Below the pieces are notes generated by a model. That model did not search any database, was not told where the DNA came from, and saw nothing but the letters and a program-made list of their open reading frames with translations. Shown here in pieces: positions 5,195-41,952 of a DNA stretch of 64,000 bases (positions are counted from its first letter, which is position 1; every line of letters starts with the position of its first letter). The DNA lies in assembly GCA_017449065.1 (NCBI GenBank), contig JAFSKF010000055.1:4301-68300 (forward strand), written 5' to 3'. This DNA comes from Bacteroidales bacterium. Lineage in GTDB: Bacteria > Bacteroidota > Bacteroidia > Bacteroidales > UBA3663. The position numbers and the translations under genes are program-made.

Positions 5195-5200
5195 CACAGA

Positions 5201-26196: not shown

Positions 26197-26329
26197 AGAT
26201 GCTTTTTGTACGGTTTGTTTTGCGAAAAAATCCTTATGCCCATAGAAAATTTGCGCGATGCCTATAAAAAAAGTGCGCGATAGTTATGCCGCAAATTTTC
26301 CTCTCCTTTGTCCCCTCTGAATCACGATG

Positions 26330-26361
26330 CAAAGTTACGCATTTTTTCCGAGACTACCAAA
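26330..26361 (-). promoter_or_regulatory. Promoter of the HD-domain gene
   Basis: On the minus strand: TTTG (26361-26358), a 20-nt spacer, then TAACTTTG (26337-26330). Confidence 0.5.
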
Positions 26362-26386
26362 TTTTTCAGCCACTTTTTCGGGGGAA

Positions 26387-26434: not shown

Positions 26435-26555
26435 CCTGACACCTGACATTTAAATTTTCCAGATTGTCTTGTACTGAAATAGGTTGACTTCTGAAAACAT
26501 GAGAAACACTCGGGGCAGCCATGCGGCAAAAAAACATCACATTTCCGGCAAAATA

Positions 26556-26587
26556 TTTGGAAGTGTCGTAAAAAATGCGTATATTTG
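26556..26587 (+). promoter_or_regulatory. Promoter of the MmeI-like RM gene
   Basis: TTTG (26556-26559), a 20-nt spacer, then TATATTTG (26580-26587). The ATG is at 26659. Confidence 0.6.
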
Positions 26588-26658
26588 CATCATGAAACAA
26601 CTCCCTCTGAATCACTGTTTCATACGAATGCAAACAACAGAATCACGGCACCGATAAG

Positions 26659-29589
26659 ATGAAGACCGATAAACAGATGGCTGCAGCTGCAGCGAAATTC
26701 GCCCAGAGATGGAAAGGCAAAGGCTATGAGCGCGGACAGAGCCAGCTGTTCTGGGCCGACCTGCTCACCAGCGTCTATGGCGTGGAGAACCTTCCGGAGT
26801 TCGTCCGCTACGAGGAGCAGGTCACTTCGATGGTGGATAGCACCAACTTCATCGATGTGCACATCCCATCAACAAAAGTGCTTATCGAGCAGAAATCCAT
26901 CCATGTGGATTTGCGCAAGCCCATCAAGAAAGGCGACGGCTATATCACTCCCTTCCTGCAAGCCAAGCAATACATCGTGAACATGCCGCAGAAGGAGCAT
27001 CCCAAATGGGTGGTGACCTGCAATTTCAAGTCGTTTCTGGTTTACGATATGAACCAGCCTAACAAAGAGCCGGATGAAATTCTTTTGGAAGACTTGGGGA
27101 CGGAATACTACCGACTGAAGTTTCTGGTCGATGCACAGAGCGAACATATCAGCAAGGAGATGGAGGTGTCGATGCAGGCCGGCGAGATTGTGGGCAGAAT
27201 CTACGACGCCTTGCTGAAGCAGTATGACGACAATTCGCCCGAAGCCCTGCGCTGGCTCAACATCCTCTGTGTGCGCATCGTGTTCTGTCTGTATGCCGAA
27301 GATGCGGGCGTGTTCGCCAGAGACCAGTTCCACGACTACCTGATCCGCTACGATGCCGACGACCTGCGCAATGCCCTGATCCGGCTGTTCGACGTGCTGA
27401 AGACCCCGACCGAGAAACGCAGCAAATACCTCAAGGACGACCTCAAAGCCTTCCCCTACACCAACGGCGGCCTGTTCGAAGAGGAGATAGAGATTCCGCA
27501 GTTCACCGACGAACTCAGGCAGACGCTGCTGCACAATGCGAGCCTCGACTTCGACTGGAGCAAGATCTCGCCTACCATCTTCGGAGCCATGTTCGAGAGC
27601 ACGCTCAATCCGGAAACGAGACGTTCCGGCGGTATGCACTACACCTCGATCGAGAACATCCACAAGGTCATCGACACGCTGTTTCTGAACGATCTGTGCA
27701 GGGAATTCGACATCATTCTGGAAGAGAAAGTCGAACGGCAGCGCGTAAAGCGGCTCGATGCCTTTCAGGACAAACTTGCCTCGCTCACCTTCCTCGATCC
27801 GGCTTGCGGCAGCGGCAACTTCCTCACCGAAACCTATCTTTCGCTGCGACGTCTGGAGAACGACGTTATCCGTGCCAAATATCACGGTCAGTCCATGCTG
27901 GGCGCCTTTGTGAATCCCATCAAGGTCAGCATCCAGCAGTTCTATGGCATCGAAATCAACGACTTTGCCGTCACCGTTGCCACCACAGCCCTATGGATCA
28001 GCGAGGCCCAGATGCTGGCAGAAACGGAGCGCATCGTGCATCAGGACATCGACTTCCTGCCGCTGAAGCCCTACCATAATATCCGCGAGGGGAATGCGCT
28101 CCGAATGGAGTGGGATGTGATTGAAGAAAAGTCGGATATTCCTACGATTCATGCAGAAAAAGTACACCTGATTGTTGAATCGGAGCCGAAAATGGTCAAA
28201 GATTCTTCTGTTGTCGAATACGGAGAGCTGAATGTAATAACGAAGCATTTTGAAAGCGCCAACGAACCGGAGAGTAAGTTCCGACGGGTACATTACGACT
28301 ACATCATCGGAAATCCGCCGTTTGTAGGTGCCAACATGATGAGCAAAGAGCAACGTGCAGACCTTCGCCACGTTTTCGGTTCAAAGTGGAAGAACATTGG
28401 TGAAATGGATTATGTGACAGCATGGTATATGCAAGCGGCCCGCGTAATGAAAGGAAGGGATACCCGTGCTGCGCTTGTTTCTACCAACAGTGTATCGCAA
28501 GGAGAACAGGTCGCTAATTTGTGGCAACCTCTCTTCGAACAGCTTGAAATGCATATTGATTTTGCACACAGAACTTTCCGATGGGATAGCGAAACGACAC
28601 AAAAAGCACATGTACATTGTGTGATTATTGGTTTCAGTAATGCAAAAAACAAGGCTCCCAAGATAATATATAATGGAGAGAATGTGCGAGAGGCAGCGAA
28701 TATTAACGCCTATCTTATGGATGCTCCCAATGTGTTTGTCGGAAGTCGAAGTAAACCATTGTGTGACGTTCCCGAGATTCGCAAGGGAAACCAGCCGACC
28801 GATGGCGGACACCTAATTATAGAATCGGAAGATCTTGAAGCGTTCCTTGCACGTGAACCGAAGGCAGAAAAATTCATCAAACGGCTGATTGGTGCTAAGG
28901 AATTTATCAATAATAAGTTACGATATTGTCTGTGGTTGAAGAATGTATCCCCTGCTGAATTAAGGCAGATGCCTGTGGTTATGCAACGTATAGAGGGCGT
29001 TCGTCAAATGCGCAAAACAAGTAGCGATCCTGCAACGAGAAAACTAGCTGATACTCCTTGGCTCTTCCGAGAGACTAATAATCCTGAGACGTATATAATT
29101 ATCCCGTCTGTATCGTCGGAAAAACGGAAATTTATTCCGATGGGCTTTTTAAAGTCCGATACAATACCGACCAACCTCGTTCTTATCATTCCCGATGCAA
29201 CGCTCTATCACTTTGGCATCCTTGAGAGCAATGTTCATATGGCGTGGATGCGAGCTGTATGCGGAAGATTGGAAATGCGCTATCGTTACTCAAAAGATGT
29301 AGTTTATAACAACTTCCCTTGGCCTAAGCCCTCCGAGGAACAAAAGATGAAGATTGAACAGACGGCACAAGCCATTCTTGACGCACGTGCTCTCTATCCG
29401 GATTCTTCTCTGGCAGACCTCTACGACGAACTGACAATGCCCGTAGAGCTTCGTAAGGCTCATCAGGAGAACGATCTGGCGGTGATGCAAGCCTACGGCT
29501 TCCCGGTCAGAAATACGTTTACGGAAAGCCAATGCGTGGCAGAACTGTTTAAGCTCTATCAGGAAATGACTGAAAAGAAAGGGAAATAA
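26659..29589 (+). CDS. Type IIL (MmeI-family) single-polypeptide restriction endonuclease / N6-adenine DNA methyltransferase
   Basis: 976 aa. The N-terminal PD-ExK-type motif D66-X10-E77-Q-K79 (FIDVHIPSTKVLIEQKS) matches the MmeI D-X9-EXK arrangement. The SAM motif is FLDPACGSGNFL, the catalytic motif is YIIGNPPFVG, and a long C-terminal target-recognition region follows. Confidence 0.85.
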   Translation: MKTDKQMAAAAAKFAQRWKGKGYERGQSQLFWADLLTSVYGVENLPEFVRYEEQVTSMVDSTNFIDVHIPSTKVLIEQKSIHVDLRKPIKKGDGYITPFLQAKQYIVNMPQKEHPKWVVTCNFKSFLVYDMNQPNKEPDEILLEDLGTEYYRLKFLVDAQSEHISKEMEVSMQAGEIVGRIYDALLKQYDDNSPEALRWLNILCVRIVFCLYAEDAGVFARDQFHDYLIRYDADDLRNALIRLFDVLKTPTEKRSKYLKDDLKAFPYTNGGLFEEEIEIPQFTDELRQTLLHNASLDFDWSKISPTIFGAMFESTLNPETRRSGGMHYTSIENIHKVIDTLFLNDLCREFDIILEEKVERQRVKRLDAFQDKLASLTFLDPACGSGNFLTETYLSLRRLENDVIRAKYHGQSMLGAFVNPIKVSIQQFYGIEINDFAVTVATTALWISEAQMLAETERIVHQDIDFLPLKPYHNIREGNALRMEWDVIEEKSDIPTIHAEKVHLIVESEPKMVKDSSVVEYGELNVITKHFESANEPESKFRRVHYDYIIGNPPFVGANMMSKEQRADLRHVFGSKWKNIGEMDYVTAWYMQAARVMKGRDTRAALVSTNSVSQGEQVANLWQPLFEQLEMHIDFAHRTFRWDSETTQKAHVHCVIIGFSNAKNKAPKIIYNGENVREAANINAYLMDAPNVFVGSRSKPLCDVPEIRKGNQPTDGGHLIIESEDLEAFLAREPKAEKFIKRLIGAKEFINNKLRYCLWLKNVSPAELRQMPVVMQRIEGVRQMRKTSSDPATRKLADTPWLFRETNNPETYIIIPSVSSEKRKFIPMGFLKSDTIPTNLVLIIPDATLYHFGILESNVHMAWMRAVCGRLEMRYRYSKDVVYNNFPWPKPSEEQKMKIEQTAQAILDARALYPDSSLADLYDELTMPVELRKAHQENDLAVMQAYGFPVRNTFTESQCVAELFKLYQEMTEKKGK

Positions 29590-29763
29590 AGGGTCTCTCC
29601 TTCAGCCAGTCGAACCGGCCTTTATCGGCTTCATGCTGATGCCACGAAGTCCAATAGACGGATGCGGGAAGGCTGTTTCTGCATAAAAGGACGCCCATTT
29701 TCGGGAGTCCTTTCTGAAAAATATGCTTAGAAACACAAAAACAGCTACGAAAACATATAAGCA

Positions 29764-31209
29764 TTAGTTAGAAATCGTCAAAGTTGTCTTATCGCAGATC
29801 AATCGGAAACCGACATAAGCGGCTTTATCTTCCGTGAATGCCAAAGAGAAATTAACTCGATTATTAATTAAAAGAGCGTTAGATACAGGTGTAATTGCAT
29901 TTTCTGCACTATTAAAATAGCCGCCCATATATTTATAGGCGTAATACACATTATACGTATGGGTACTTCCTGTATTTGTCCATTCTCCCACATTTCCACT
30001 CATATCATAAAGGCCCAACTCATTAGGAAGTTTCTGTTTAACCCCATGAGGCGTTCCATTACTGTTTAATGAGAACCACGCGACATCTGCAGCTATATTT
30101 CCTCCACAATAGGTTGTACTCTTCGATAAATTCCCTCCTTTGGCTGCAAAAGACCATTCAGCTTCGCTTGGTATAGAAAAAACACTCCCTGTTTCTAAAT
30201 TTAACCTGCTAATAAATGCATTGCATTCGCTTAACGAAACGTTTGTCACTGGCATACTTGGATCCTTTATCGTTGACGGATTCGTCTGCATAACAGCTTC
30301 CCAAAGTTCCTGAGTAACCTCAGTTTCTCCCACATAATAGCAATTTCCATTTAGGCCCGAAACGCCATTATAGACTTTCATCATGCGGAAACTAACTCCA
30401 GCAACAGTAAAATCCTTAAAACGGACTGCTTTCCAGCCATTCATATTTTCAGAGGTCGGGATATTCAGATAACCGCTTTTTCCTTGTGCCAGGACTTTCG
30501 AACTAACTGTTTTTTCAAACGCCAGGTTGTTTGCCCTATCGTGTATGGTTATTTTGCGATTATCCTCTTCTTCAAAAAAGCCGTAGTAATAATCTGAAAA
30601 TCCGTCTTTCAGAACGCTGCCATCAAAAACAGAATCTCCCTTAACAAACTCATTATCTTCCAGACTGTAACTTCGATAAAAGGATATTCCTTCTGCTATA
30701 AAAGATTGCTTGGATGTACCTTTTAGCCTGATTCGTCCTGTCATAGGCTTTAAAATCGCATCCACTTTAACTACTTTGTCGTTGAACGAATAAGTGGCAC
30801 TATTATCTGCAAAAATAGCCGTTGTCTTGTTCAATGTAACTGCACTGTAGGAACTTTCTGCGGCATTTTCAAAATAATAACATTCGCATACGGCGTTATC
30901 GACCTCAGTCAATGAACCATAAATCTCCAAATCCCACTTTGATGCTGCGGAACTATATTTTGCCATTCCGCTGATTCTATCGTTTCCTGACGAAAACTGA
31001 AAATATACCTTTGAACCATCTTCCCAAGTTTCGGCTAAAACAGACCGAGTAGTACCCTCACTGTCGAAGTCTTCCTTATCTGTATTCAGTTCAATCTCCG
31101 CATAAGTTACGACTCTATCTTCTTTAGGCTGAACCAAATCTTCTGCATCATTAGAACATGACGCTATCAGAAAAGCCAAAGGAGTAAATAAGACAAGTAA
31201 TTTCTTCAT
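29764..31209 (-). CDS. Surface lipoprotein: paralogous N-terminal ~230-aa domain plus C-terminal FGE-sulfatase-fold domain lacking the catalytic Cys pair (operon gene 7)
   Basis: The lipobox is LIASC, followed by the acidic stretch SNDAED. FGE-fold motifs are present: GETEVTQELWEAVM, ECNAFISRLN, PSEAEWSFAAKGG and LGLYDMSGNVGEWT. No CxxxxC occurs where FGE has its active site. Confidence 0.8.
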   Translation of the reverse strand: MKKLLVLFTPLAFLIASCSNDAEDLVQPKEDRVVTYAEIELNTDKEDFDSEGTTRSVLAETWEDGSKVYFQFSSGNDRISGMAKYSSAASKWDLEIYGSLTEVDNAVCECYYFENAAESSYSAVTLNKTTAIFADNSATYSFNDKVVKVDAILKPMTGRIRLKGTSKQSFIAEGISFYRSYSLEDNEFVKGDSVFDGSVLKDGFSDYYYGFFEEEDNRKITIHDRANNLAFEKTVSSKVLAQGKSGYLNIPTSENMNGWKAVRFKDFTVAGVSFRMMKVYNGVSGLNGNCYYVGETEVTQELWEAVMQTNPSTIKDPSMPVTNVSLSECNAFISRLNLETGSVFSIPSEAEWSFAAKGGNLSKSTTYCGGNIAADVAWFSLNSNGTPHGVKQKLPNELGLYDMSGNVGEWTNTGSTHTYNVYYAYKYMGGYFNSAENAITPVSNALLINNRVNFSLAFTEDKAAYVGFRLICDKTTLTISN

Positions 31210-31278
31210 AGTATGCTTTGTTTAGATTTATCATTATGACATTTATTAGCCACTTTATTTTCGTTATCAAATAGAATC

Positions 31279-32778
31279 CTACAACGGAATAACGACAGGT
31301 TGTTTCCCACGATATGCGGGTTGAGTCATACCAATGCGTGCACCTGTATAGGTGGGATCACATATCACATATTTCCTGTTATCAACCATTACATAATCCC
31401 CAGAAACCTCCTGATGGAAATTCACTGCGCTCCAAAGATGTCCTGGCGAATAGAGCAAAACTACATCCAAACCCACTAATTTACGGACCAGAAGAGATAA
31501 TAATATAGACCGGTCCTCACAATCGTTATTCGGGTAATAGAAATTCTCCTCAAAAAAGAACGGTTTCTCATAACCGAACTGTTCGTTGTCGGTTGCATAG
31601 CTAAAACCATATTGGAGGAAATCCATCAGCATTGAGACTTTTTCATACTCTGTCTTTCCGTCAAGTGCCTTCCGAAGAGGTGGCATCAACTGTCTGCCGA
31701 CATCTTCCGACAAGGGCTGCCGTGCATAAAATCCCCAAGGATAGCCACAGAAATAAGGTTCTGATTCATAGTAGTCCATCAGATTCTTATTGACACTAAC
31801 AGAGACTTTAACTTCTGGATAACGTTGGGAATAAACCGTTCTCTTTTCACTTTCAATATTACTTAACACCATTTCAGAAGGGCACTCAAAGTCAATTGGA
31901 CGTATGGCGTCTTTCATATTCAGACGATAAGTGTAGATCTGTTCGTTTTTTATGTTTGTGTCAAGAATATAATATGTCTTACCGTCAATTGTCAAGAAAG
32001 CGAAGGTGTATGCTTCCATCGTAAATGGACAAAGAATCAGCAACCGGTTGCTTGCGGATCTTGCCATACGCACATCATAACCCAACTGATTCATTAACCA
32101 TGCCTGCAACAGAACCGCTTCATTTCCTTGTGTGTCTTCCACTTTCCGTGAAACGGATTCACAAAGTTTGAAAGTTGCCCATCCATTCAATTTCATATTC
32201 CGCTGCAAATTCGAACAGTCAGCAACGAACGAACCCGTATTTACAGACGCCAATTTATACAAGCAATCAGCCACGTCTTTTTCCGTGCAGGATGCAAGTC
32301 GGAATTTTAATTCATCGGTAACCGAAATACTGCAACCCGTTCCAAAAAAAATCACATTAATCTTCTTTGGTTCGCCCTTATCCCCCTTGGGAACTTCTGG
32401 AACCACTATCGGAACTGGTTTGACAGGCTTCTTATCTGGTAAAATCTCACCATGAGGAAGTGGAGAAGGTTCCACTGGAGCCACATCTTCTTTCGGAAGG
32501 ACTACAGGTGGAACAACAGGTTTGGGTTCCGTGTGTTTCTTCCTGCCAGGCAAAACTTCGAATAAATCCCATTTTTGCCGAGCATAGGCTGCAAACTCCT
32601 CATTCTTTTGTTTCCGATACTGTTCAAACTTCCGATATTGTTCCGTGCGATAGTCCGAAAATTCCGCCCTCTTCTGATTCCTGAAAGCCTCAAATTCAGA
32701 CTTTTTGTCAAATTGGGCCAGCACTGTCACAGATAACAGTGCACCAAATAGTGATAAAACAATTCTTAGTTTGAACAT
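31279..32778 (-). CDS. Secreted transglutaminase-like (Cys-His-Asp papain-fold) protein (operon gene 6)
   Basis: 499 aa. Order of parts: signal peptide, charged helical segment, Pro-rich linker, then a C-terminal core of DCEDRS..GHLWSAV..ICDPT that matches the transglutaminase-core pattern. Confidence 0.7.
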   Translation of the reverse strand: MFKLRIVLSLFGALLSVTVLAQFDKKSEFEAFRNQKRAEFSDYRTEQYRKFEQYRKQKNEEFAAYARQKWDLFEVLPGRKKHTEPKPVVPPVVLPKEDVAPVEPSPLPHGEILPDKKPVKPVPIVVPEVPKGDKGEPKKINVIFFGTGCSISVTDELKFRLASCTEKDVADCLYKLASVNTGSFVADCSNLQRNMKLNGWATFKLCESVSRKVEDTQGNEAVLLQAWLMNQLGYDVRMARSASNRLLILCPFTMEAYTFAFLTIDGKTYYILDTNIKNEQIYTYRLNMKDAIRPIDFECPSEMVLSNIESEKRTVYSQRYPEVKVSVSVNKNLMDYYESEPYFCGYPWGFYARQPLSEDVGRQLMPPLRKALDGKTEYEKVSMLMDFLQYGFSYATDNEQFGYEKPFFFEENFYYPNNDCEDRSILLSLLVRKLVGLDVVLLYSPGHLWSAVNFHQEVSGDYVMVDNRKYVICDPTYTGARIGMTQPAYRGKQPVVIPL

Positions 32779-32784
32779 ACCAAC

Positions 32785-33636
32785 TTAGAAATTATAAGTC
32801 AATGAAAGTCCGGCATAATCAGGCCCTACGGTCGGCACCATACCGAAACGGTTCTCTCCGGCAGGTTTCACCTTTACTTGCCTTGCGCCCTTTGCCACAG
32901 CAGCATCTAAGACATTATAGACCCAGACAGCAATTCCGGCACCAATGCATACATTACGTCCCGTTTCCCAGTTAGATTTTTTATCCTCATACTGTTTTGC
33001 AAATTTGGGAGTTTCTTTAATTTTACGCTCATAAGAACTACATTTGTTTTCGCAAAACAACATTCCGGATACCGCAGCAGCCTCAGCTGCAAAAAAACAA
33101 ATACCCTTCACCCGGCTACCTTTATACCACTGCCCCGCTCCAGGGACAACTGACATCAGCACAGGAGCCACTCCATAAGAAGTCGTTAGATAGGTCCGGT
33201 CGAATACGGGATGATCCTCAACTGCAACCATAAACAATGTATGCATCTTGACCAATCCTTGTTCTTGGGTAACATATTCATCAACTGGATAAGCCTGCAG
33301 TTCAAACTGTTTACCCGACACCTGCATCCTAACATCCACCTGATCACGAATGGTCTCATTCATCTGTCCGTTGACGACTGTCTGTTCTATGTTGCGAAGC
33401 TTACCACTTTCAACATTCACCTGAACGGCACGGGTCAGTTGTTCGTTTGAAGCCAGTTTTTTCTTGGCTTCTTCGCGGGCACTTGCTATATCAGTTGCAT
33501 ACGAAACCACTTCCACAAACTTGTAGGTGTGGTTCATTTCCTGTGGGGTATTGCCGACCCACCTGGGCTTTTGTGCCACCAATGTGGTGGACAAAAGTCC
33601 AAGTAAGACAAAACAGATATCACGGAGTTTTATCAT
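32785..33636 (-). CDS. Secreted protein with LPP20-like N-domain and hydrophobic C-terminal region, PGAGQWYKG motif (operon gene 5)
   Basis: 283 aa with a signal peptide. The C-terminal half has 2-3 hydrophobic segments resembling Bacteroidetes DUF5683 and ends in ..LSLTYNF. The family assignment is tentative. Confidence 0.5.
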   Translation of the reverse strand: MIKLRDICFVLLGLLSTTLVAQKPRWVGNTPQEMNHTYKFVEVVSYATDIASAREEAKKKLASNEQLTRAVQVNVESGKLRNIEQTVVNGQMNETIRDQVDVRMQVSGKQFELQAYPVDEYVTQEQGLVKMHTLFMVAVEDHPVFDRTYLTTSYGVAPVLMSVVPGAGQWYKGSRVKGICFFAAEAAAVSGMLFCENKCSSYERKIKETPKFAKQYEDKKSNWETGRNVCIGAGIAVWVYNVLDAAVAKGARQVKVKPAGENRFGMVPTVGPDYAGLSLTYNF

Positions 33637-34214
33637 AATCCTAACTTACCTTGTAGTTTCTTAAGCTCTTCTTTGTTCTCTTCAATGAACTTCTGCCTGT
33701 CAAAATCGGTCTGAAGAATTTCATCCTGGGTCAACCGATTATAGGCATCATCTAACAGTTTATCGGTTGTCTGGGTTAACTCGATACAAACATACGCCGT
33801 AATTGTCTTATCCGGATTATCGTATATCGACGGCTCACCTATCACTTTGTAGCTCAGCACTTGAGAAATGTAGGTTTTTACGTGATTCTGCACTTCCTGT
33901 TCCGTGAGTCCACGGTTATCAATCTGATTGGTTTTATTGTAGCGGTCGCGCACACCGATGATAGCCGACTGGATGCGACCTGCAAGTAGCGCGACAGCTG
34001 CATTTTCTGCATTCTCCAATGCCACATCTTCAAGACTCGATGTTGCAGAAGAAGCTGCCCTTAGGTTTTTACCTTCCTTTTGTGCTAACTGGTATGTCGG
34101 ATCTACCGTGCGTCGAACCCTACCCGCTGTATCAACAGCAGCTTTCTTGGAACCACAAGAAACAAACACCGTGGCAGTCATCATCATTGCTGCCAATAAC
34201 ATTAACTTTTTCAT
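33633..34214 (-). CDS. Small lipoprotein, LPP20/FlgP-like (operon gene 4)
   Basis: 193 aa. The lipobox is VFVSC, followed by basic residues GSKK. It overlaps the next gene by 4 nt (ATGA). The fold assignment is tentative. Confidence 0.5.
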   Translation of the reverse strand: MKKLMLLAAMMMTATVFVSCGSKKAAVDTAGRVRRTVDPTYQLAQKEGKNLRAASSATSSLEDVALENAENAAVALLAGRIQSAIIGVRDRYNKTNQIDNRGLTEQEVQNHVKTYISQVLSYKVIGEPSIYDNPDKTITAYVCIELTQTTDKLLDDAYNRLTQDEILQTDFDRQKFIEENKEELKKLQGKLGL

Positions 34215-34242
34215 AGAGGTTATTTTAGTTTATTGTTACTAA

Positions 34243-35607
34243 TTAATAAGATAATAATCTCAAACCTATAGCATATGAAGCCGAAGTAAATGAAGAATTA
34301 GAACTATATGATGAACATTTGACATAATTCTGACTATCACTATAGTATCCTCCATAATAAGAAAATGAATTACCTGATGCCAAAGTCATTTCTGATACAT
34401 TGCCGCTCATGTCATAAATTTCCAGTTCGTTCGGCTTCAAGGTCTTCACATCATGTCTCGAAGAATTACTATTGCCAGAATACCAAGCAACCTCAGCAAC
34501 AGAATTGCTCCCAGAGTAAGTATATCCCTGGGTTAAATTTCCGCCTTGAGCGGCAAAGAACCACTCAGAAGCAGTAGGCAAACGGAAGTTTTCTCCGGTT
34601 TTGGCATTCAGTTTCGCAATGAAAGTAAGACAATCATTGTAAGATACATTGGCTACCGGTAAATTATCTCCTGAAAGATTCGTGTTCATCACCGCATTCC
34701 ACAATGCCTGGGTAACCTCAGTCTCCCCAATGAAGAAACTATAATAGGAAGCGTTGCCTACCACACGAATCATTCGGAAAGACACCTTTCCTATCGAATA
34801 GTCCTTAAACTTAACAGTTGTCCACCCGCTACGTTTGTCAAGCGTCGGGATATCGAGATATCCACTTTTGCCGACTCCCAGCGCATTACTTCCGAAAGTA
34901 CGTACAAACGAGACATTGTTCTCCTTATCGTTGAAAATCAACTCTCGGTTATCTTCGTCTGCAAAGAAACCGTAGATATAGTTTGAATAACCGTCTTTTT
35001 CTGTTGTTGAGATTATACTCGGGGCAGCAGATTCGAAGGTATTGCTTTCCAAATTATAGTTAGTATAGCAAGTTACACCATCCAGAAAAAACTCCTGAAG
35101 AGCAGATCCTTTCATGCGGATTCGGCCAGTCATGGGTTTCAGGTTTGCTGTCACTTTCACCGTATTATCTTCAACTGAATACGAAGAAGATTTATCGATA
35201 AAAATCGCTGTTGCGTTTGTTAAAGAAACCGATCTGTATGTTGCTTCTCCTGCATTTTCGAAATAATATGCCTCACACTGACCATCATTGGTGATCGGAA
35301 GGGAACCATAATACTCGATGGTCCAGGATGAAGAAGATTTGCTATACTCTGCCACTCCGTCAACAAGAGAATTACCCACCGAAAACTGAAGGTAAACCTT
35401 GGAGCCATCGTCCCAGGCATCAGCAGCAACTGCGCGAGTTGTCCCTTCGGAGTCGAAGCTCGGCTTGGCGCTGTTGAACTCCATCGTAGCATAATGAACT
35501 TCACGCTCTTTGGTTGGAGGTTCCAAATTATCGATATCGTCACTAGTGCACGACACCGAAATCAAAGTCATTACAACGAATGACACTAAATAATGTAATT
35601 TTTTCAT
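34243..35607 (-). CDS. Surface lipoprotein, paralog of 29764-31209 (N-domain plus cysteine-pair-less FGE fold) (operon gene 3)
   Basis: I prefer the start at M15 (MKKLHYLVSFVVMTLISVSC, ATG at 35605-35607). The lipobox is followed by the acidic stretch TSDDID. By eye, roughly half of the aligned residues are identical to gene 7. Confidence 0.8.
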   Translation of the reverse strand: MKKLHYLVSFVVMTLISVSCTSDDIDNLEPPTKEREVHYATMEFNSAKPSFDSEGTTRAVAADAWDDGSKVYLQFSVGNSLVDGVAEYSKSSSSWTIEYYGSLPITNDGQCEAYYFENAGEATYRSVSLTNATAIFIDKSSSYSVEDNTVKVTANLKPMTGRIRMKGSALQEFFLDGVTCYTNYNLESNTFESAAPSIISTTEKDGYSNYIYGFFADEDNRELIFNDKENNVSFVRTFGSNALGVGKSGYLDIPTLDKRSGWTTVKFKDYSIGKVSFRMIRVVGNASYYSFFIGETEVTQALWNAVMNTNLSGDNLPVANVSYNDCLTFIAKLNAKTGENFRLPTASEWFFAAQGGNLTQGYTYSGSNSVAEVAWYSGNSNSSRHDVKTLKPNELEIYDMSGNVSEMTLASGNSFSYYGGYYSDSQNYVKCSSYSSNSSFTSASYAIGLRLLSY

Positions 35608-35639
35608 AGCTTTTAAATAAGTGTTATACATTAATATTT

Positions 35640-37307
35640 TTAATTCCAATCTTCATCATTGTCGAATTCTTTCTTATCAATATTTCCGATACCCGTAGGA
35701 TTCTCGTTCATATCTTCATCCGAACCATAGCCTTCTTTGCCCAGAGAACCTTCTGTAGATGGATTCCCGTTCAAATCTTCATCCGAACCATAGCCCTCTT
35801 TACTAAAAGTGCCTTCGGCAGATTGATTCTCGTTCAAATCTTCATCCGAACCATGTCCTTCTTTGCCGATTGTTCCCTCTGTATTAGATCCGACATTAAG
35901 ATCTTCGTCTTCCCCAAAGCCTTCCTTACCGATAATACTTTCAGAAGATGATTTTCCATTTAAGTCTTCATCCTGTCCATAGCCTTCTTTATTAATCGTA
36001 CCCTCAGATGAAGTCTCATTCGTTAAGCTATCATCATCTCCGTAACCATCCTTACCAATGGTTCCTTCAGAAGACGTATTTCCTGTCAAATCTTCCTCTG
36101 TGCCATATCCGTTCTTTTCGAAAGAACCCTCTCCATCCGCTGAAGGATTCAAGTCCTCATCCTCTCCATAGTGTTGAACACCGAACTCCGTTCCATCCTC
36201 TTCTTCTGACAAAGTGGTAAACTGAACGACTTCGCCATAAGAAGAGCCTCTTTCGTTAGTCGCGAAAGAACGAATGAAATAAGATGTCTTTGCTGTCAAC
36301 ATTGCCAACCGGGTCTCTAACATAGAAGACTTGCCACAAACCACTTTTGTTCCGTTATCAAAGGATGGCTTATTTGATACTGAATAGATAAATCCTGCTT
36401 CTGAAAGCGTTCCGTTCCCCAAATCAGACACGGATGCTATCGCCGTTGCGAAATGACTGCGAATTTTGCTGACTTCAACAGCAGAAACCGTTGGCAAGAC
36501 AATTTCTTTTTGATTTTCAATATTTACAAGAGTCCAACCTTGCAATACATTGTCAGTGCTTGGAAGAGAAATAAAACCGCTCTGCCCGGCAGCAAGGACA
36601 GCATCGTCAAAACTGCGAATAAAAACGCCTTGTCCAGTTGCATCGACAACCAGTTGACGCTGAGAAACATTAGAAAAACCAACATAGAAATAATCGGTAT
36701 CTCCAGACTTGTCGAATGAAGAAGATATTTTATTTTTGCTGATTTCAAAAGTATTAGTGGTAATGTTATATTCAGTATGATACTGCAATCCAGAAACACC
36801 AAATTTTGCTGATGCCTGCCCTTTGAAACGGACGCGTCCGGTACGGGGGGAAAGCAATAACTTGACAAACATTTCCGAATCCTCGGTGAATGTGAAACTA
36901 CCCTCAACATCCTGATAGATGGCAGAACGTGCATTTAAAGAAACTGATTGTGATGAAGTTCCTGCATCATTTCTGAAAAAATAAGCCTCACAATCTCCAT
37001 CCGTATCCGGTTCTATCTGTCGGGAAGTAGTTATGGTCCACTGTCCGTCTGTCTGACTATAGTTGGCAACACCGGGAATCCGATTGTCTCCAATCTTCAA
37101 CTGCAAGTATAACCGAGCACCTTCCTCCCAAGCATAAGAAGAACGTGTCGGCTGACCGAATCCTGTTAATTCGGCTTCGAGAAATAACCGGTATGAAAAA
37201 AGGGATTCCGGCTTCGAAGCTGGTCCTGAAATCTCCGATTCCCGATAACAGGATTCTGTCAACAGTGACAATAATAGGGCTATGCTATATATGCATATTC
37301 TTTTCAT
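35640..37307 (-). CDS. Lipoprotein: shared N-domain, one Fn3-like module, then nine 21-aa acidic repeats (operon gene 2)
   Basis: 555 aa with the lipobox-like LLTESC. The N-domain aligns with genes 3 and 7 (..LSPRTGRVRFKG.. versus ..LKPMTGRIRLKG..). The C-terminus is ..DNDEDWN. Confidence 0.75.
   Translation of the reverse strand: MKRICIYSIALLLSLLTESCYRESEISGPASKPESLFSYRLFLEAELTGFGQPTRSSYAWEEGARLYLQLKIGDNRIPGVANYSQTDGQWTITTSRQIEPDTDGDCEAYFFRNDAGTSSQSVSLNARSAIYQDVEGSFTFTEDSEMFVKLLLSPRTGRVRFKGQASAKFGVSGLQYHTEYNITTNTFEISKNKISSSFDKSGDTDYFYVGFSNVSQRQLVVDATGQGVFIRSFDDAVLAAGQSGFISLPSTDNVLQGWTLVNIENQKEIVLPTVSAVEVSKIRSHFATAIASVSDLGNGTLSEAGFIYSVSNKPSFDNGTKVVCGKSSMLETRLAMLTAKTSYFIRSFATNERGSSYGEVVQFTTLSEEEDGTEFGVQHYGEDEDLNPSADGEGSFEKNGYGTEEDLTGNTSSEGTIGKDGYGDDDSLTNETSSEGTINKEGYGQDEDLNGKSSSESIIGKEGFGEDEDLNVGSNTEGTIGKEGHGSDEDLNENQSAEGTFSKEGYGSDEDLNGNPSTEGSLGKEGYGSDEDMNENPTGIGNIDKKEFDNDEDWN
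35643..36209 (-). repeat. Coding tandem repeat, 9 x 63 nt (21 aa), consensus xNxSxEGTIGKEGYGxDEDLN
   Basis: The YG/FG/HG-acidic-(L/M/W)N motif recurs at residues 380, 401, 422, 443, 464, 485, 506, 527 and 548. The period is exactly 21 aa, and the protein ends at the end of unit 9. Confidence 0.85.
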
Positions 37308-37331
37308 AATGTCAATTTGCTGTTATAAACG

Positions 37332-40300
37332 TTAGTTCCAATCTTTGTCTTCACCATAATCGTCAAAATCCACGTCATTCCCAGCGGGCTCTGCTGCTGT
37401 GGTAAATGTCACTTGTTCGCCCAAGGTCGTACCTTTTTCATTAGTAGCATAAGCTCTGACGTAGTATGTTGTCTCAGGCAAAAGTGTAGATATTTTAACT
37501 GATAAGTCGCTTGTTTTTCCACAAGACACCTTATGGTTGGACATTACAGGATTAGAAGAAGTAGAATAAACGAATCCTGCATCACTGACCGACCCGTTTC
37601 CTGCAGAAATAACGGATGCAGAGAGCGAAACTGATTTGTAAGTCACTCGACCAACGCTGACATTAGTCACAGAAGGCGGCACAATTTCGAGTGTCGCAAA
37701 ATCTGTCTCCTCTCCGTAACTTATACCAGCTTCATTGATCACATATGCCCGCACGTAATAAGTCGTATTATCCGACAATCCAGTCACGGTTTTCGAGAAA
37801 TAGCCGGTTTGTACACCCCCACAACTGATTCTCGTTGCATTGTTCACTATCGGTTCTGGAGACTTGGAATATACGAATCCGCAATCTACTATCGTCCCAT
37901 CTCCGTCACTGACAATCGAGCTACGGAAGGTGGCAGAACCGGTTCCGATACTCGATACTGCAACTTTAGCCGATTGAGGCAATTTGATTTCGTGAGTGGT
38001 TTTGAATCCGACATTGTTTCCATAAAAAGTTTCTCCGTCTTCGGTCTGAACATAAGCACGGACATAGTAATCTGTTAATTCAGACAAACCCGTAATGGTC
38101 AATAAAAATCGGTCTGTATATGCTGTCGAATACATATGATCATCGGAAATTGTCGGATAAGGAGACTTACTCCAACAAACACCCCGTTCCGCAATAGAAT
38201 GTCCACCTTTGTCAGATATCGATCCTCCTGTTGTTGCCTTATCATGAATGACATCGCTAACAGCAATGGTTGTCAAACTTACAACATCGTAAGCCGTCGT
38301 AAAAGAAACATCTTCGCCATAGGCTGTTCCGACAGAATTCGTTGCATAGGCCCTGATGTGATAAGTCGTATGCGGCAGAAGGTCTGTCAACTTAGAGGTA
38401 TAAGCTCCGACCACTGTTGCAGAACCCAGAGTTGTCTTATGATCCAATAACGTTGGATTAGAAGTCGTATTCCACACATGTCCATGTTGAGTAATACCAG
38501 TTTCATCACCGATTCTAAGAATGTTACCGGAAGCTGTAGCTTCTCGAGCCTGAACGCTCATAATCGCATCAGTTTCTACTAATGGAACCTTATTCTCATA
38601 AGCCGTTTCAAAAGTTACATCATTGCCGTAGTACGTTTCTCCGTCTGCGGTAAGTACGTATGCCCTCACATGATAGACCGTTTGTTCGTTTAATCCAGAA
38701 ATGCGAATACTGTATCGGTCTGTCGTTTCCTGTGAGCTGAGTTTATCGTCTGACGTTGTCGGATTATTAAAGGTGCTCCAGCATATTCCCCTTTCTCGAA
38801 CCACATGTCCTCCTTTATCCGAAATGATTCCTCCAGTAACGGCAGAGTTGTAGGTTATACCGGAAACTTCCAACGTTGCCAAAGTGACATCATCGTAAGC
38901 CGTAGTAAACATCACATTTTCACCATACGCTGTGCCGGTAGAATTGGTTGCGTAAGCGCGCACATAATAGGTTGTGTGAGGTTGAAGCTCTGACAGTATC
39001 GAAGTGTACGTTCCAATCGTGGAAGTGTAGCCCAACGACGTCTTGTTGTTTGCTGTTGTCGGATTGGTTGAAGTGCTCCATACATGTCCGTATTGTGAGA
39101 CGCTTGTCTCGTTGCCCATTGTCACTATATTTCCTGATACCGTTGCCTGTTTAGGGCGGATATCAGCGATCGATCCTGTTTCAACAGAAGGTACCTGAGG
39201 CTGGACTTTGGTTTCAAAAACCTGTTGTTCAGAATAGTTAATTCCTTCTGCATTTTCAGCGTATGCACACACATAGTATCTTGTCCCAGGTTGCAATTGA
39301 GAAGCTGAATATTCGAAATCCTTTGCCAACTCGCTATCTCCCAAATTGCACGACTGCCCCTTACCCAGCATCGGATGTTCTTCTGTACTCCAGCAAAAGC
39401 CGTGCTTTGTTACTTTTGCACTACCTAACGACACGATTCCGCCTTTGAATTTTGCTGAAACATAACCTATACTGTCAACAGTATAGAAAGTAACCGTCGG
39501 CTTGTCTTTCGATGGCACATTCATTCGGACTGGGATGTCTATATTGTCTTCACCAACTGTAAGCTTTAAGGCACCAGAATAGTCTCCAGCATTTAATCCT
39601 GTTCGGTCAACAACAACATTTAGCGCATCATTTCCAGATGTTATTGTACCACTCGTCTTCGAAGGAATAATCCAAGTATTCGACGGCGTCAGTGCATAGC
39701 TAACAGTCTGACTACCTGTATTTGTAAGCGTAAGTGTGATAGAAGTTGTAATGGAGCCAAAATCCAGTTCCTCCGGAGAAATTTTAACCGTCAGACCTTG
39801 AACACTGATATTAACTTTTACAACTGCACTACCCCCGTTACTTGAAATAGCAATAGTTTGCGAATATGTTCCTTTGGAAAGGCCTGTCCTATCTGCATTC
39901 AGAATTACAGACGAAGATTTCCCTATGACTGTAGTCCCTGAAGTCGGAATACATTGCAACCAGGAGATATCTTCGCTAATCTGCCAATTCAAGGCTGCTG
40001 CCCCGACATTTTTTATATCTAAGGTTAACGAAGTGTTTTCGTTGCCGAAATCAAAAGTTTCCTGACTGAGAGAGAGAACCGCCGTAGCTGGAGTCAAGTG
40101 GAAATCAAGTGTGGCTGTAACTCCTGTCTTAACAGCAACGCTCTTAACGTCTTCTTGGTATCCGCTTTTGGTGGCCTGAACACGATAGGAATCGGCATCT
40201 ATATCCTCAAAAGAATACATGCCATTCTGTCCTGTGGTTGTTGTTTTCCCAAGAGGAGACAAAGTCATTGCTACACCTTGGAGGGGTCTGTCCTGGGTAT

Positions 40301-40439
40301 CATAAACCGTACCGGAAATATTACCTGTAATGTCCACCGGATCTGAACTGCCACAAGACATCACGATAAGTGCTGGAAGCACCTCTAGTACATATCTGAT
40401 TATTTTTTTCTTCCGATGATTCATAAATAAAAAGTGCAT
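37332..40439 (-). CDS. Large surface lipoprotein: CarboxypepD_reg-like domain, two BACON-like domains, seven Fn3-like modules, acidic C-terminal tail (operon gene 1)
   Basis: 1035 aa (or a start at M6). The lipobox is IVMSC. The N-terminal domain carries GNISGTVYD..GVAMTL..TTTGQNGMYSF. The BACON-like pattern is L.LS...FDFG......L.I.N.G...L.W......W. The repeated modules carry G(F/I/V)CWS / HGHVWS ... YYVRAY. The C-terminus is DDYGEDKDWN. Confidence 0.8.
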   Translation of the reverse strand: MHFLFMNHRKKKIIRYVLEVLPALIVMSCGSSDPVDITGNISGTVYDTQDRPLQGVAMTLSPLGKTTTTGQNGMYSFEDIDADSYRVQATKSGYQEDVKSVAVKTGVTATLDFHLTPATAVLSLSQETFDFGNENTSLTLDIKNVGAAALNWQISEDISWLQCIPTSGTTVIGKSSSVILNADRTGLSKGTYSQTIAISSNGGSAVVKVNISVQGLTVKISPEELDFGSITTSITLTLTNTGSQTVSYALTPSNTWIIPSKTSGTITSGNDALNVVVDRTGLNAGDYSGALKLTVGEDNIDIPVRMNVPSKDKPTVTFYTVDSIGYVSAKFKGGIVSLGSAKVTKHGFCWSTEEHPMLGKGQSCNLGDSELAKDFEYSASQLQPGTRYYVCAYAENAEGINYSEQQVFETKVQPQVPSVETGSIADIRPKQATVSGNIVTMGNETSVSQYGHVWSTSTNPTTANNKTSLGYTSTIGTYTSILSELQPHTTYYVRAYATNSTGTAYGENVMFTTAYDDVTLATLEVSGITYNSAVTGGIISDKGGHVVRERGICWSTFNNPTTSDDKLSSQETTDRYSIRISGLNEQTVYHVRAYVLTADGETYYGNDVTFETAYENKVPLVETDAIMSVQAREATASGNILRIGDETGITQHGHVWNTTSNPTLLDHKTTLGSATVVGAYTSKLTDLLPHTTYHIRAYATNSVGTAYGEDVSFTTAYDVVSLTTIAVSDVIHDKATTGGSISDKGGHSIAERGVCWSKSPYPTISDDHMYSTAYTDRFLLTITGLSELTDYYVRAYVQTEDGETFYGNNVGFKTTHEIKLPQSAKVAVSSIGTGSATFRSSIVSDGDGTIVDCGFVYSKSPEPIVNNATRISCGGVQTGYFSKTVTGLSDNTTYYVRAYVINEAGISYGEETDFATLEIVPPSVTNVSVGRVTYKSVSLSASVISAGNGSVSDAGFVYSTSSNPVMSNHKVSCGKTSDLSVKISTLLPETTYYVRAYATNEKGTTLGEQVTFTTAAEPAGNDVDFDDYGEDKDWN
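37980..39191 (-). repeat. Tandem duplication of a two-module (~202 aa, ~606 nt) unit inside the Fn3-like array
   Basis: Residues 417-618 (PSVETGSIADIRPKQATVSGN..) and 619-820 (PLVETDAIMSVQAREATASGN..) align colinearly with many identical blocks, for example TAYGE(N/D)V.FTTAYD and DKGGH...ERG.CWS. Confidence 0.6.
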
Positions 40440-40513
40440 TCGTAATTTGTAATAAACTCTGCTATGACGACTATTAAAGTGTTACAATAAAAATAAAAGC
40501 AGGCAAACAGTTT

Positions 40514-40663
40514 CTACTCAAGATGGTAAAAACTGTTGTCTGTCTTAAAGAGAAGATATGAGAAAACCCTGAAATTAAAAATCAAATGAGAAATACCCCC
40601 CCCAATTAAATTCGGGAGAAGAGAATATACTTTGATCTCAGTTATATGGGTTCTTGGTTTCAT
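40514..40663 (-). other. 49-codon upstream ORF in the operon leader, containing a G8 tract
   Basis: Hand translation gives MKPRTHITEIKVYSLLPNLIGGGISHLIFNFRVFSYLLFKTDNSFYHLE*. It is below the 60-aa cutoff of the ORF track. Whether it is translated is unknown. Confidence 0.25.
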
Positions 40664-40703
40664 GGAGTGTTTTTATTAAGCTTCAGATAATTATCTTGCG
40701 CGG

Positions 40704-40731
40704 CAAAGATAAAAAAAAAATTTAGGACAAA
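40704..40731 (-). promoter_or_regulatory. Likely promoter of the seven-gene operon, with an A10/T10 tract in the spacer
   Basis: On the minus strand: TTTG (40731-40728), a 16-nt spacer that includes a T run, then TATCTTTG (40711-40704). I found no other TAnnTTTG between here and the start codon. Confidence 0.45.
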
Positions 40732-40838
40732 CAACTTATTTATAAAAAAAAGACCAAAATTGTGTGCATTTAATGAAAAAATATGTTATACAACACATTA
40801 TTAGGACCATTCTCTTTCTGGAAAGCCCACCAATCTAT

Positions 40839-40891
40839 ACGGAAAGCCAATGCGTAACCAAGTTGTTGAGTTATATCTGGGAATGACTGAA
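40839..40891 (+). pseudogene. Degenerate second copy of the 3' end of an MmeI-family gene
   Basis: The first 17 nt are identical to 29521-29537 (acggaaagccaatgcgt). Overall 42 of 54 hand-aligned positions are identical, with one 1-nt gap. It encodes ..YTESQCV.. compared with ..FTESQCV.. in the intact gene. Confidence 0.5.
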
Positions 40892-40909
40892 TATTTAAAC
40901 TATACAAAA

Positions 40910-40929
40910 GTGCAAGCAATTGCCTGCAC
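40910..40929. terminator. Palindromic hairpin downstream of the gene remnant
   Basis: The sequence gtgcaagcaattgcctgcac pairs at 9 of 10 positions around a central aatt. AT-rich sequence lies on both sides. Confidence 0.35.
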
Positions 40930-41060
40930 TTAATATTTATGAATCCCAATGACTCTTAATTCGTTATTTCCACGCTTGAATCGCTTAAATTATGCTATTA
41001 GATAGAATAGCAGACAACCTGATATCGCGAAATAGTGGACTTAAAAACAACTGTCCCTGA

Positions 41061-41738
41061 TCACTTTTCATGCACAGCGCGAACTGCACAACAAAAATAC
41101 AGGTCGCATATCATAAACTGTTTTTTAGAAGTATCGGTGTTAAAATTCAGATGATTGCAACCATACTCGTATCCATTAACGATATAAACCTCATCGGCAT
41201 CAGGTGTACCACACCAATAATTACCTTCATAGCTGATATTGGTATTATCCGTAAACTCAAAATCCATTGAAGAAAAAGACTCGCTCAAATAGTTACTTCC
41301 CGAATTAGGCAAAAAGATAGAATTGCCATTTTTTCCTGTGACACGAAAACCATTGTGTCCATTAACAGTTTCAACATTCCATTCACATTCGTCAACCAAT
41401 TCCCTCATTTCTTTACCTGCTGGCATTCTCCAACCATCTCCCATCATCACCTTAGCTATATCTTTGTCCGTTCCACTAACGTTCATACTTTCTAGCTTAG
41501 GAGATTTGACGGTTCCGGTAACATTCCCCAATGGAACTCTGACACCGACCTCCTCTGGATTCTCGGCACCTACATTGCAAACTGCCCAGTTTACACTTAA
41601 GCCCAAATCTACTCCATAGGATGCGGACTCCTGAATGGAAGCCAATTCTTGTGTATTTTCCGTTTTACTGCTTTGGGAACCGCATCCTGCAAATACAACA
41701 AATGCCAAGATGTTAGCAACAATTAAAAACTTTTTCAT
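41061..41738 (-). CDS. Lipoprotein with FISUMP/DUF1566-like domain
   Basis: I prefer the start at M24 (MKKFLIVANILAFVVFAGC), which lies downstream of the minus-strand -7 box TATATTTG (41779-41786). Motifs NWAVCNVGA and GDGWRMPAGKEMRELV resemble the Fibrobacter-paralogous/DUF1566 pattern (W+.P...E...L). Confidence 0.6.
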   Translation of the reverse strand: MKKFLIVANILAFVVFAGCGSQSSKTENTQELASIQESASYGVDLGLSVNWAVCNVGAENPEEVGVRVPLGNVTGTVKSPKLESMNVSGTDKDIAKVMMGDGWRMPAGKEMRELVDECEWNVETVNGHNGFRVTGKNGNSIFLPNSGSNYLSESFSSMDFEFTDNTNISYEGNYWCGTPDADEVYIVNGYEYGCNHLNFNTDTSKKQFMICDLYFCCAVRAVHEK

Positions 41739-41952
41739 GATGTTAAAAATTAGTATTAATGAGATATGTTTACGGGTGCAAATATAAAGGAAAAAGCTTT
41801 TCGACAATCAAAACGCTTGCAGTTTTTTTGAAAAATCCGCTACATTTTCGCATCATGCTAAAAAAATGATAGGATTGGAATGTCCGAATTATTATATCAG
41901 GACTCATGCCATCTCAATGCTATCCTTTTTTGTCGGCCTTATCACAACGCCC

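Follow-up and report, generated by a model that had tools for sequence, protein, structure and literature searches.

A 64,000-nucleotide (nt) stretch of DNA from a Bacteroidales bacterium (GenBank assembly GCA_017449065.1, contig JAFSKF010000055.1; "the window" below means this whole stretch) was found to contain an intact MmeI-family restriction-modification gene and, about 11 kb downstream on the same strand, a decayed fragment of a 3′ end of the same gene family, which is here called the relic. Between the two lies a compositionally foreign operon of seven surface-protein and lipoprotein genes. The intact gene and the relic share a run of 18 identical nt, and similar gene-end fragments were found at other loci of the family. 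On balance, we lean towards the explanation that a foreign block was joined at the end of the MmeI gene, stranding an older gene end.

An MmeI-Family Gene End Occurs Twice in the Window

The following features of the window are referred to in this and the next two sections.

26659-29589, + strand: intact MmeI-family (Type IIL/IIG) restriction-modification gene, 976 codons, identified from Pfam domains and a structure match
29419-29574, + strand: stretch of the resident (intact) gene homologous to the relic, comprising residues 921-936, 49-51 nt without a counterpart in the relic, and residues 954-972
29520-29537, + strand: left copy of the 18-mer TACGGAAAGCCAATGCGT, from local alignment; proposed crossover or conversion zone
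29590-29763, no strand: convergent spacer of 174 nt, from the restriction-modification gene to the last operon gene
29764-40439, - strand: seven-gene surface/lipoprotein operon, from open reading frames (ORFs), Pfam and NCBIfam
40786-40833, + strand: relic piece A, matching MmeI residues 921-936 in decayed form and read in another frame than piece B
40836-40898, + strand: relic piece B, a decayed match from MmeI residue 954 to the end with a 1-nt deletion, found by nhmmer
40838-40855, + strand: right copy of the 18-mer, inside relic piece B
40908-40931, no strand: palindromic stem-loop 3′ of the relic; an 81-nt stretch that includes it folds at -15 kcal/mol (z = -3.0)
41061-41738, - strand: lipoprotein gene of unknown family, 225 amino acids (aa), adjoining the relic at its right; the start is the methionine of MKKF..., not a TTG codon

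The product of the intact gene showed all five Pfam domains of the family above their cut-offs (MmeI_N, MmeI_hel, MmeI_Mtase, MmeI_TRD and MmeI_C; E-values from 1e-19 to 1e-83), which is a five-domain architecture of N-terminal nuclease, helical spacer, methyltransferase, target-recognition domain and C-terminal domain. It matched the MmeI structure 5HR4 with E=1.9e-194, and the translation contained a D...EQK nuclease motif of the PD-(D/E)XK type, DPACGSGNFL (with the DPACGSG motif that binds S-adenosylmethionine) and GNPPF. From these matches, 26659-29589 is predicted to encode a complete MmeI-family enzyme; the public gene call begins at 26677 and gives 970 aa. The C-terminal block of the family, ...AYGF...TESQCVAELFKLYQELT..., was nearly invariant among 120 homologues and was conserved at the DNA level too, which makes it a plausible homology anchor.

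Local alignment on the same strand showed that 29520-29574 and 40838-40891 are identical at 43 of 55 positions with one 1-nt gap (29520-29540 against 40838-40858, and 29542-29574 against 40859-40891). A previous reading made from the sequence alone (the sequence-only reading) had reported this repeat as 42 of 54 positions with the first 17 nt identical; the repeat was recovered, with an exact run one base longer (18 nt, TACGGAAAGCCAATGCGT) and 25 of the remaining 37 positions identical. That reading had allowed for a match by chance. The local score of the repeat was 29, compared to a mean of 16.0 (standard deviation 1.4, maximum 20) when 150 dinucleotide shuffles of the last 300 nt of the gene were aligned to both strands of the remainder of the window, that is, 9 standard deviations above the shuffled queries, and the repeat is therefore significant. 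Besides, the 18-mer pair was the only non-tandem direct repeat of at least 18 nt within the 64 kb.

Comparison with other members of the family showed that the 18-mer of the relic was present exactly in the resident gene only; among 78 family genes, two matched it at 17 of 18 positions and ten at 16 of 18, and the chance that a random family member matches at all 18 was about 0.005 when calculated from position-wise family frequencies. Over the 36 nt following the 18-mer and over the upstream piece (48 nt), the resident gene showed no greater similarity to the relic than other family members did, and all four codons for KAHQ in the relic differed from those of the resident gene, at the third position only. 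Relic and resident gene are thus diverged, then identical over the 18-mer, then diverged again. This pattern follows directly from a reciprocal crossover within the 18-nt patch, or from a short conversion tract there; uniform decay of a duplicate does not yield it, and an unrelated allele would do so only rarely. The sharp 18-nt identity with diverged flanks fits a recombination joint.

A Decayed Gene End Downstream of the Intact Gene

A DNA profile was built from the last 330 nt of 77 family genes from metagenome loci, with the window excluded. Searched with this profile, nhmmer found 40836-40898 at E=7e-4, aligned to profile positions 277-340, i.e., to the very end of the profile. The sequence-only reading had suggested that weaker homology might be present upstream of 40839, and the similarity did extend to 40786-40833: piece A reads LYNTLLGPFSFWKAHQ, compared to LYDELTMPVELRKAHQ for resident residues 921-936 (8 of 16 identical by tblastn). 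When the 198 nt preceding the relic were dinucleotide-shuffled 2000 times, its protein-profile score, again with the window excluded, was reached in 3 cases, and MAFFT independently aligned it at the same family positions with a 49-nt gap. Further upstream of piece A and elsewhere in the window, no MmeI-like sequence was detected. In total the relic comprises residues 921-936 and 954 to the end, about 110 bases, with deletions of about 49 nt and 1 nt. On these alignments we identify 40786-40898 as a genuine MmeI-family 3′-end relic in the same orientation as the intact gene.

The 37-codon ORF at 40773-40886 described in the sequence-only reading was present and reads ...YTESQCVTKLLSYIWE*, and the palindrome described after the relic was located at 40908-40931. 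This stem-loop could have ended transcription of the displaced gene end, as its old terminator, or could serve the lipoprotein gene at 41061-41738 in that role. The same reading had regarded the downstream copy as a duplicate of the 3′ end of the restriction-modification gene, and as the displaced old end of an ancestral MmeI-family gene. Its membership of the family was borne out by the profile match; its status as a simple duplicate of the resident end was not, the flanks of the 18-mer being no closer to the resident gene than to others. Nor is the copy laid out as a core and a displaced end whose left side is unrelated element DNA, since MmeI-like sequence continues upstream of the 18-mer.

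The DNA between the Two Copies Is Compositionally Foreign

As previously described, the only contents between the two copies are the 174-nt spacer, seven minus-strand genes and their upstream region. The seven genes are separated by short gaps only. One product, of 1035 aa, has BACON, fn3 and carboxypeptidase-regulatory-like domains, two others have an FGE-sulfatase (SUMF1-like) domain, and the other four, one of them of 555 aa, are without a clear family. The GC content at third codon positions (GC3) was 0.34-0.44 in these genes compared to 0.56-0.71 in the surrounding genes, which shows that the operon is compositionally foreign. The lipoprotein gene right of the relic (41061-41738) had a GC3 of 0.36, and the next gene (41953-43080) 0.57. 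The remainder of the window was found to be ordinary chromosome, with genes for glutamate synthase, CTP synthase, histidine biosynthesis and tRNAs. The spacer contains a predicted stem-loop at about 29684-29712 and showed no similarity to the downstream region of any other family gene.

Domain scans (Pfam and NCBIfam, applied to the genes of the block and to the gene-like ORFs of at least 150 aa in the window) detected no integrase, serine recombinase or transposase in the 64 kb, in agreement with the sequence-only reading. No tRNA or Rfam match was found in the block or at its junctions, and the ends of the block carry no terminal inverted repeats. The marks of a transposon or insertion sequence (transposase, terminal inverted repeats and a short target-site duplication) were thus not found.

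Two operon genes contain internal repeats. At 35698-36138, a 63-nt (21-codon) unit within the gene for the 555-aa protein is repeated in tandem at least six times, the copies being 62-100% identical to the reference copy. In the gene for the 1035-aa BACON/fn3 protein, repeats about 70% identical lie 606 nt apart at 38137-39080; these are presumably duplicated domain modules.

Assembly Support and Related Loci

Exact-protein look-ups showed that public collections hold the window locus only in identical form. A 92-kb scaffold matches the locus, an independent Logan contig is exactly equal to window 28053-41209, and a contig of a second sample spans the junction between gene and operon with one mismatch. 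This agreement of an independent assembler and a second sample shows that the structure is no assembly artefact.

When representative genomes were scanned, no match was obtained for the 405-aa neighbouring protein; for the HerA-like neighbour, 80 loci were obtained, and none of them shared any other window gene. Around homologues of the lipoprotein and of the last operon gene, neither a nearby MmeI gene nor a shared gene order was found. The lipoprotein homologues (35-69% identity) were present in unrelated contexts, some of them heading clusters of small genes and leucine-rich repeat proteins, and 41061-41738 may therefore be a separate acquisition. The closest related operons (53-57% identity) were found between housekeeping genes, with no MmeI gene nearby.

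Gene-End Fragments Are Found at Other MmeI-Family Loci

We collected 80 metagenome loci with family members, 77 of them with a complete 3′ end and 53 with at least 1 kb of upstream sequence. Five of the 77 were found to carry an extra 3′-end fragment, in each case on the same strand as the gene; identities are to the resident gene of each locus, and distances are measured from its end.

L142, 4515-4584: about 68% identity, about 380 nt from the gene end
L154, 4784-4888: about 68% identity, about 220 nt from the gene end
L165, 3600-3875: 90% identity over 239 nt, gap of about 570 nt
L173, 4344-4472: 99% identity over 99 nt, gap of about 530 nt
L167, 5045-5223: 100% identity over 115 nt, gap of 2.3 kb with three ORFs

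Together with the window, all six relics are 3′ ends located downstream on the same strand; no upstream or antisense fragment and no 5′ or internal fragment was found among the loci searched. By our arithmetic, which assumes equal opportunity for four configurations, six of six in one of them has a p of about 2e-4. At the five other loci the relics are 64-276 nt long and 68-100% identical to the gene. Relic starts fall at profile positions 85, 152, 224, 233, 264 and 277 across the six loci, their junctions share no common motif, and each locus has its own, unrelated DNA separating the gene from the relic. Scans of the genes between gene and relic showed no recombinase-like domain and no known defence family. 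No PADLOC matches were obtained for the genes adjoining the relics at the other loci, and the relic sites are therefore not called a defence-gene hotspot. The relics of L142 and L154 abut housekeeping genes, as expected if a relic marks the old edge of the chromosome.

At L167, comparison of 5047-5224 with 2594-2771 showed strong divergence up to ...ELR/DLL, followed by 100% identity for 115 nt to the end of the contig. This mosaic boundary in the C-terminal block might stem from a crossover or a conversion tract, or the recognition domain may have been swapped later. The gap at L165 holds one 178-aa ORF coupled to the stop codon of the gene. At both L165 and L142 a small ORF overlaps this stop codon, and the overlap suggests that these ORFs are translationally coupled to the gene. 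At two further loci, L141 (2872-3056) and L150 (5913-6154), the reading frame runs 184-241 nt beyond the usual end of the family; such an overrun could be a C-terminal extension or a fusion resulting from a change of gene end.

Promoter Signals and Composition of the Family Genes

Three further features of the window are located beside the relic.

40704-40711, - strand: Bacteroidetes-type -7 promoter box TATCTTTG, located 265 nt before the operon's first ATG
40418-40438, no strand: left arm (21 nt) of an inverted repeat, covering the first codons of the first operon gene (1035 aa)
40925-40945, no strand: right arm (21 nt) of the inverted repeat, overlapping the 3′ half of the stem-loop

The -7 box motif occurs 62 times in the window (33 expected), one occurrence being near the lipoprotein gene at 41779-41786, and the region around the box of the operon (40703-40740) resembles promoter regions of other loci. 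When the spacer, the DNA downstream of the relic and the promoter region were compared with other family loci, matches to the promoter consensus alone were shared; sigma-70 promoter and terminator scans were of no help in this organism. The two 21-nt arms are complementary at 19 of 21 positions and 486 nt apart, with about 0.025 such pairs expected per 30 kb when local composition is preserved, and they enclose the operon promoter with its -7 box, the relic and the stem-loop. From this arrangement, the inverted repeat and the enclosed promoter may represent an invertible promoter of the Bacteroidales kind. The segment was in the orientation of the window in both public assemblies covering it, both from sample SAMN15829941, and no recombinase was detected in the window.

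A second inverted repeat, of 45 nt, is located between an HD-domain gene and the restriction-modification gene (26322-26366 and 26551-26595; 84% complementary, 184 nt apart). Each arm holds a complete outward-pointing promoter-like module, TTTG ... TAnnTTTGCATCRTGA, so that the divergent HD-domain and restriction-modification genes seem to use near-identical duplicated promoters.

The lower GC content in the 3′ half of the restriction-modification gene was considered as a sign of mosaicism and rejected, as the same within-gene profile is found family-wide. In the family genes, roughly nt 1500-2700, corresponding approximately to the methyltransferase end and the recognition domain, is 8-20 GC points below the remainder; in the window this is 28160-29350, and equivalent stretches were found in L081, L098, L102, L114, L121 and L172, even in high-GC hosts. 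This composition suggests that this part of the family genes circulates from a low-GC pool. The methyltransferase match at window 27740-28670 (residues 361-671) covers 311 residues on a 259-position model, and shorter family members, such as the gene at L167, are without about 55 residues just before GNPPF; this difference in length suggests an insertion near the GNPPF motif in the subfamily of the resident gene.

Proposed Mechanism and Alternative Explanations

Under the explanation that we favour, foreign DNA with the seven-gene operon would have recombined into the chromosome, anchored in the conserved MmeI C-terminal coding block, and a reciprocal crossover, or a later short conversion tract, would have fallen within the 18-mer. 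A crossover could have occurred through single-crossover integration of a circular intermediate, or equally through a double crossover with a donor already bearing two flanking gene-end copies; both belong to the model put forward for rhs C-terminal displacement, and no dedicated recombinase would be required. The product would be an intact gene with a complete 3′ end, followed by the new DNA and a promoter-less gene-end fragment on the old downstream DNA; the fragment would later have decayed through a 1-nt deletion, a deletion of about 49 nt and many replacements. The likely mechanism is homology-anchored 3′-end displacement of the type described for rhs genes (see below), rather than insertion of an integrative element that targets gene ends. 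Neither an empty site nor a variant arrangement was found, and we therefore infer from a single state the order of events, the donor or recipient origin of the sequences and the type of recombination.

Several observations weigh against this explanation. The low-GC3 island passes the relic by about 0.9 kb, into the gene at 41061-41738, which places the relic inside the island; either the relic arrived within a larger foreign block, or 41061-41738 was acquired separately. No second relic was found beyond the lipoprotein gene, in the spacer or near 43.1-43.4 kb. The tail of the resident gene after the 18-mer was examined for a foreign origin and was indistinguishable from the rest of the gene, so that the proposal of the sequence-only reading that the event supplied a new 3′ end was not supported. 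Piece A was supported at no better than p of about 0.002 and was missed by nhmmer alone. An empty site in relatives, which that reading had pointed to as a check, was not found, nor was a different arrangement, in genome scans, homologue contexts and public assemblies; only identical copies of the locus were present. The relic lies between the arms of the 21-nt inverted repeat, and its present orientation is therefore perhaps not the original one; if the segment inverts, the orientation of the relic is not fixed, which weakens arguments from orientation that rest on the window locus alone. In addition, 18 nt is short for RecA-dependent exchange with regard to minimal homology lengths. The insertion or exchange at the end of the MmeI gene that had been proposed is partly supported, and its general idea, a foreign block joined at that end with an older gene end left stranded, is the reading with the best support.

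The strongest competing explanation, which we rate as unlikely and still worth serious weight, is that the relic predates the arrival of the operon and is unrelated to it, being what is left of a mostly deleted second MmeI gene or having been carried within a larger foreign block (about 29590-41850); the 18-nt identity would then be due to a family motif conserved by chance, or to a patch of later gene conversion. This would agree with the position of the relic, which is not at the edge of the low-GC3 island since that island includes the gene to its right, and with the flanks of the 18-mer, which resemble the resident gene no more than they resemble other members of the family. Matches of 17 and 16 out of 18 do occur (in two and ten of 78 family genes), and the relics of L142 and L154, with about 68% identity to the resident gene, show that relics of different alleles exist. 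Against it, an exact match over the 18 nt is expected in about 0.5% of family members only, random decay in place does not predict that all six relics are downstream same-strand 3′ ends, and import of a whole block would still need an anchor for the left junction, which is located exactly at the end of the MmeI gene. A site-specific element that targets MmeI 3′ ends, with the 18-mer as attachment-site core, a replacement end supplied by the element and an integrase that acted in trans or was lost, is improbable in our view. An exact 18-nt direct repeat with diverged flanks at both ends of an 11.3-kb foreign block, next to a gene that retains its complete reading frame, is what such an element would leave. 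However, no integrase, serine recombinase or transposase was detected in the block or in the whole 64 kb, seven surface-protein genes with short gaps take up the block, MmeI-like sequence is present on both sides of the 18-mer in the relic, and the right compositional boundary does not coincide with the repeat. The five other loci, moreover, differ in relic start, with no shared core, unrelated intervening DNA and no recombinase-like domain among the genes scanned, so that the analogy to integrative elements at gene ends drawn in the sequence-only reading was not upheld. A similarity by chance, without any history, is hardly credible: the relic is short and scores poorly as protein (tblastn E=3.3; negative HMMER bit scores), but the DNA match stops at the natural gene end of the family, with a collinear second piece upstream, and the family profile (E=7e-4) together with the shuffle test (9 standard deviations) effectively refutes it.

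Comparison with Known Systems

Integrative elements located at gene 3′ ends, such as those in tRNA and tmRNA genes or SCCmec in rlmH, supply a replacement end to their target, carry a dedicated recombinase or require one, and use a single defined core. The window resembles them in its direct repeats, of which the right-hand copy lies about 0.9 kb inside the compositional island, in the intact state of the target gene and in what appears to be a displaced old end at the far junction; it differs in that it is without a recombinase and in that junction positions vary among loci. In phase-variable restriction-modification systems such as Type I hsdS shufflons, silent partial specificity genes with recognition domains, usually inverted, are located beside a recombinase gene. 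As in these systems, a truncated piece of a restriction-modification gene is present near an intact gene, whereas the relic, limited to residues 921 to the end, lacks a recognition domain; it is also decayed, and it forms a direct repeat.

Closer similarity was found to rhs genes, in which an intact gene is followed by same-strand promoter-less fragments that retain some of the conserved region and have tails of their own; these fragments vary in length and carry frameshifts, a low-GC trough begins at the gene end, and homologous recombination with circular intermediates, with no recombinase involved, has been proposed (Jackson et al., 2009, BMC Genomics 10:584; PMC2935791). Likewise, the intact MmeI gene is followed by a same-strand promoter-less fragment, with some of the conserved region preserved and a tail that differs, low-GC DNA starts from the gene end (GC3 0.34-0.44 from 29764) with a trough extending past the relic, and downstream fragments of varying length are found at independent loci of the family (5/77). 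Unlike rhs, which exchanges a functional toxin tip with its immunity gene and builds arrays of several tips, the window concerns a restriction-modification enzyme with a tail without known function and has imported an unrelated, convergently transcribed 11-kb operon; it contains a single short relic (about 110 nt), and the copies are of low identity except for 18 nt.

Sequential displacement of effector-immunity modules of the type VI secretion system through homology-facilitated illegitimate recombination was reported for Vibrio cholerae (Kirchberger et al., 2017; PMC5361080). There, as proposed for the window, a conserved upstream stretch serves as anchor, new DNA comes in, and the 3′ end of the old gene is pushed back together with the genes downstream, without an integrase. 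In contrast to the window, one end is joined illegitimately in that model, recipient DNA is normally lost, and the inserted DNA is functionally tied to the anchor gene; alone, the model does not predict an identical patch with divergence on both sides (PMC5361080). In the searchable literature we found no description of such relics at MmeI-family genes. We regard the relic of the window as most probably the scar of a known kind of recombination, gene-end displacement.

Implications

For the window itself the consequence is modest: if our reading is right, the surface-protein operon is an acquired block and its left junction has been located. More tentatively, and with more doubt than belief on our part, the MmeI 3′ coding block might serve as a recombinase-free landing pad in gut and rumen Bacteroidales, at which DNA with a copy of the block enters by homologous recombination. 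If this is true, the restriction gene would stay intact and a stranded gene end would be left behind, so that restriction genes would be entry points for foreign DNA besides being barriers to it. If the reading is right, one widespread restriction-modification family would mark recurrent insertion points of foreign genes in Bacteroidales, and the rhs-type displacement model would extend to a family without a polymorphic toxin tip. Stranded gene ends would be datable scars of insertion events, and the signature of an intact gene with a downstream same-strand 3′ fragment would be searchable and would locate recently acquired DNA in metagenomes.

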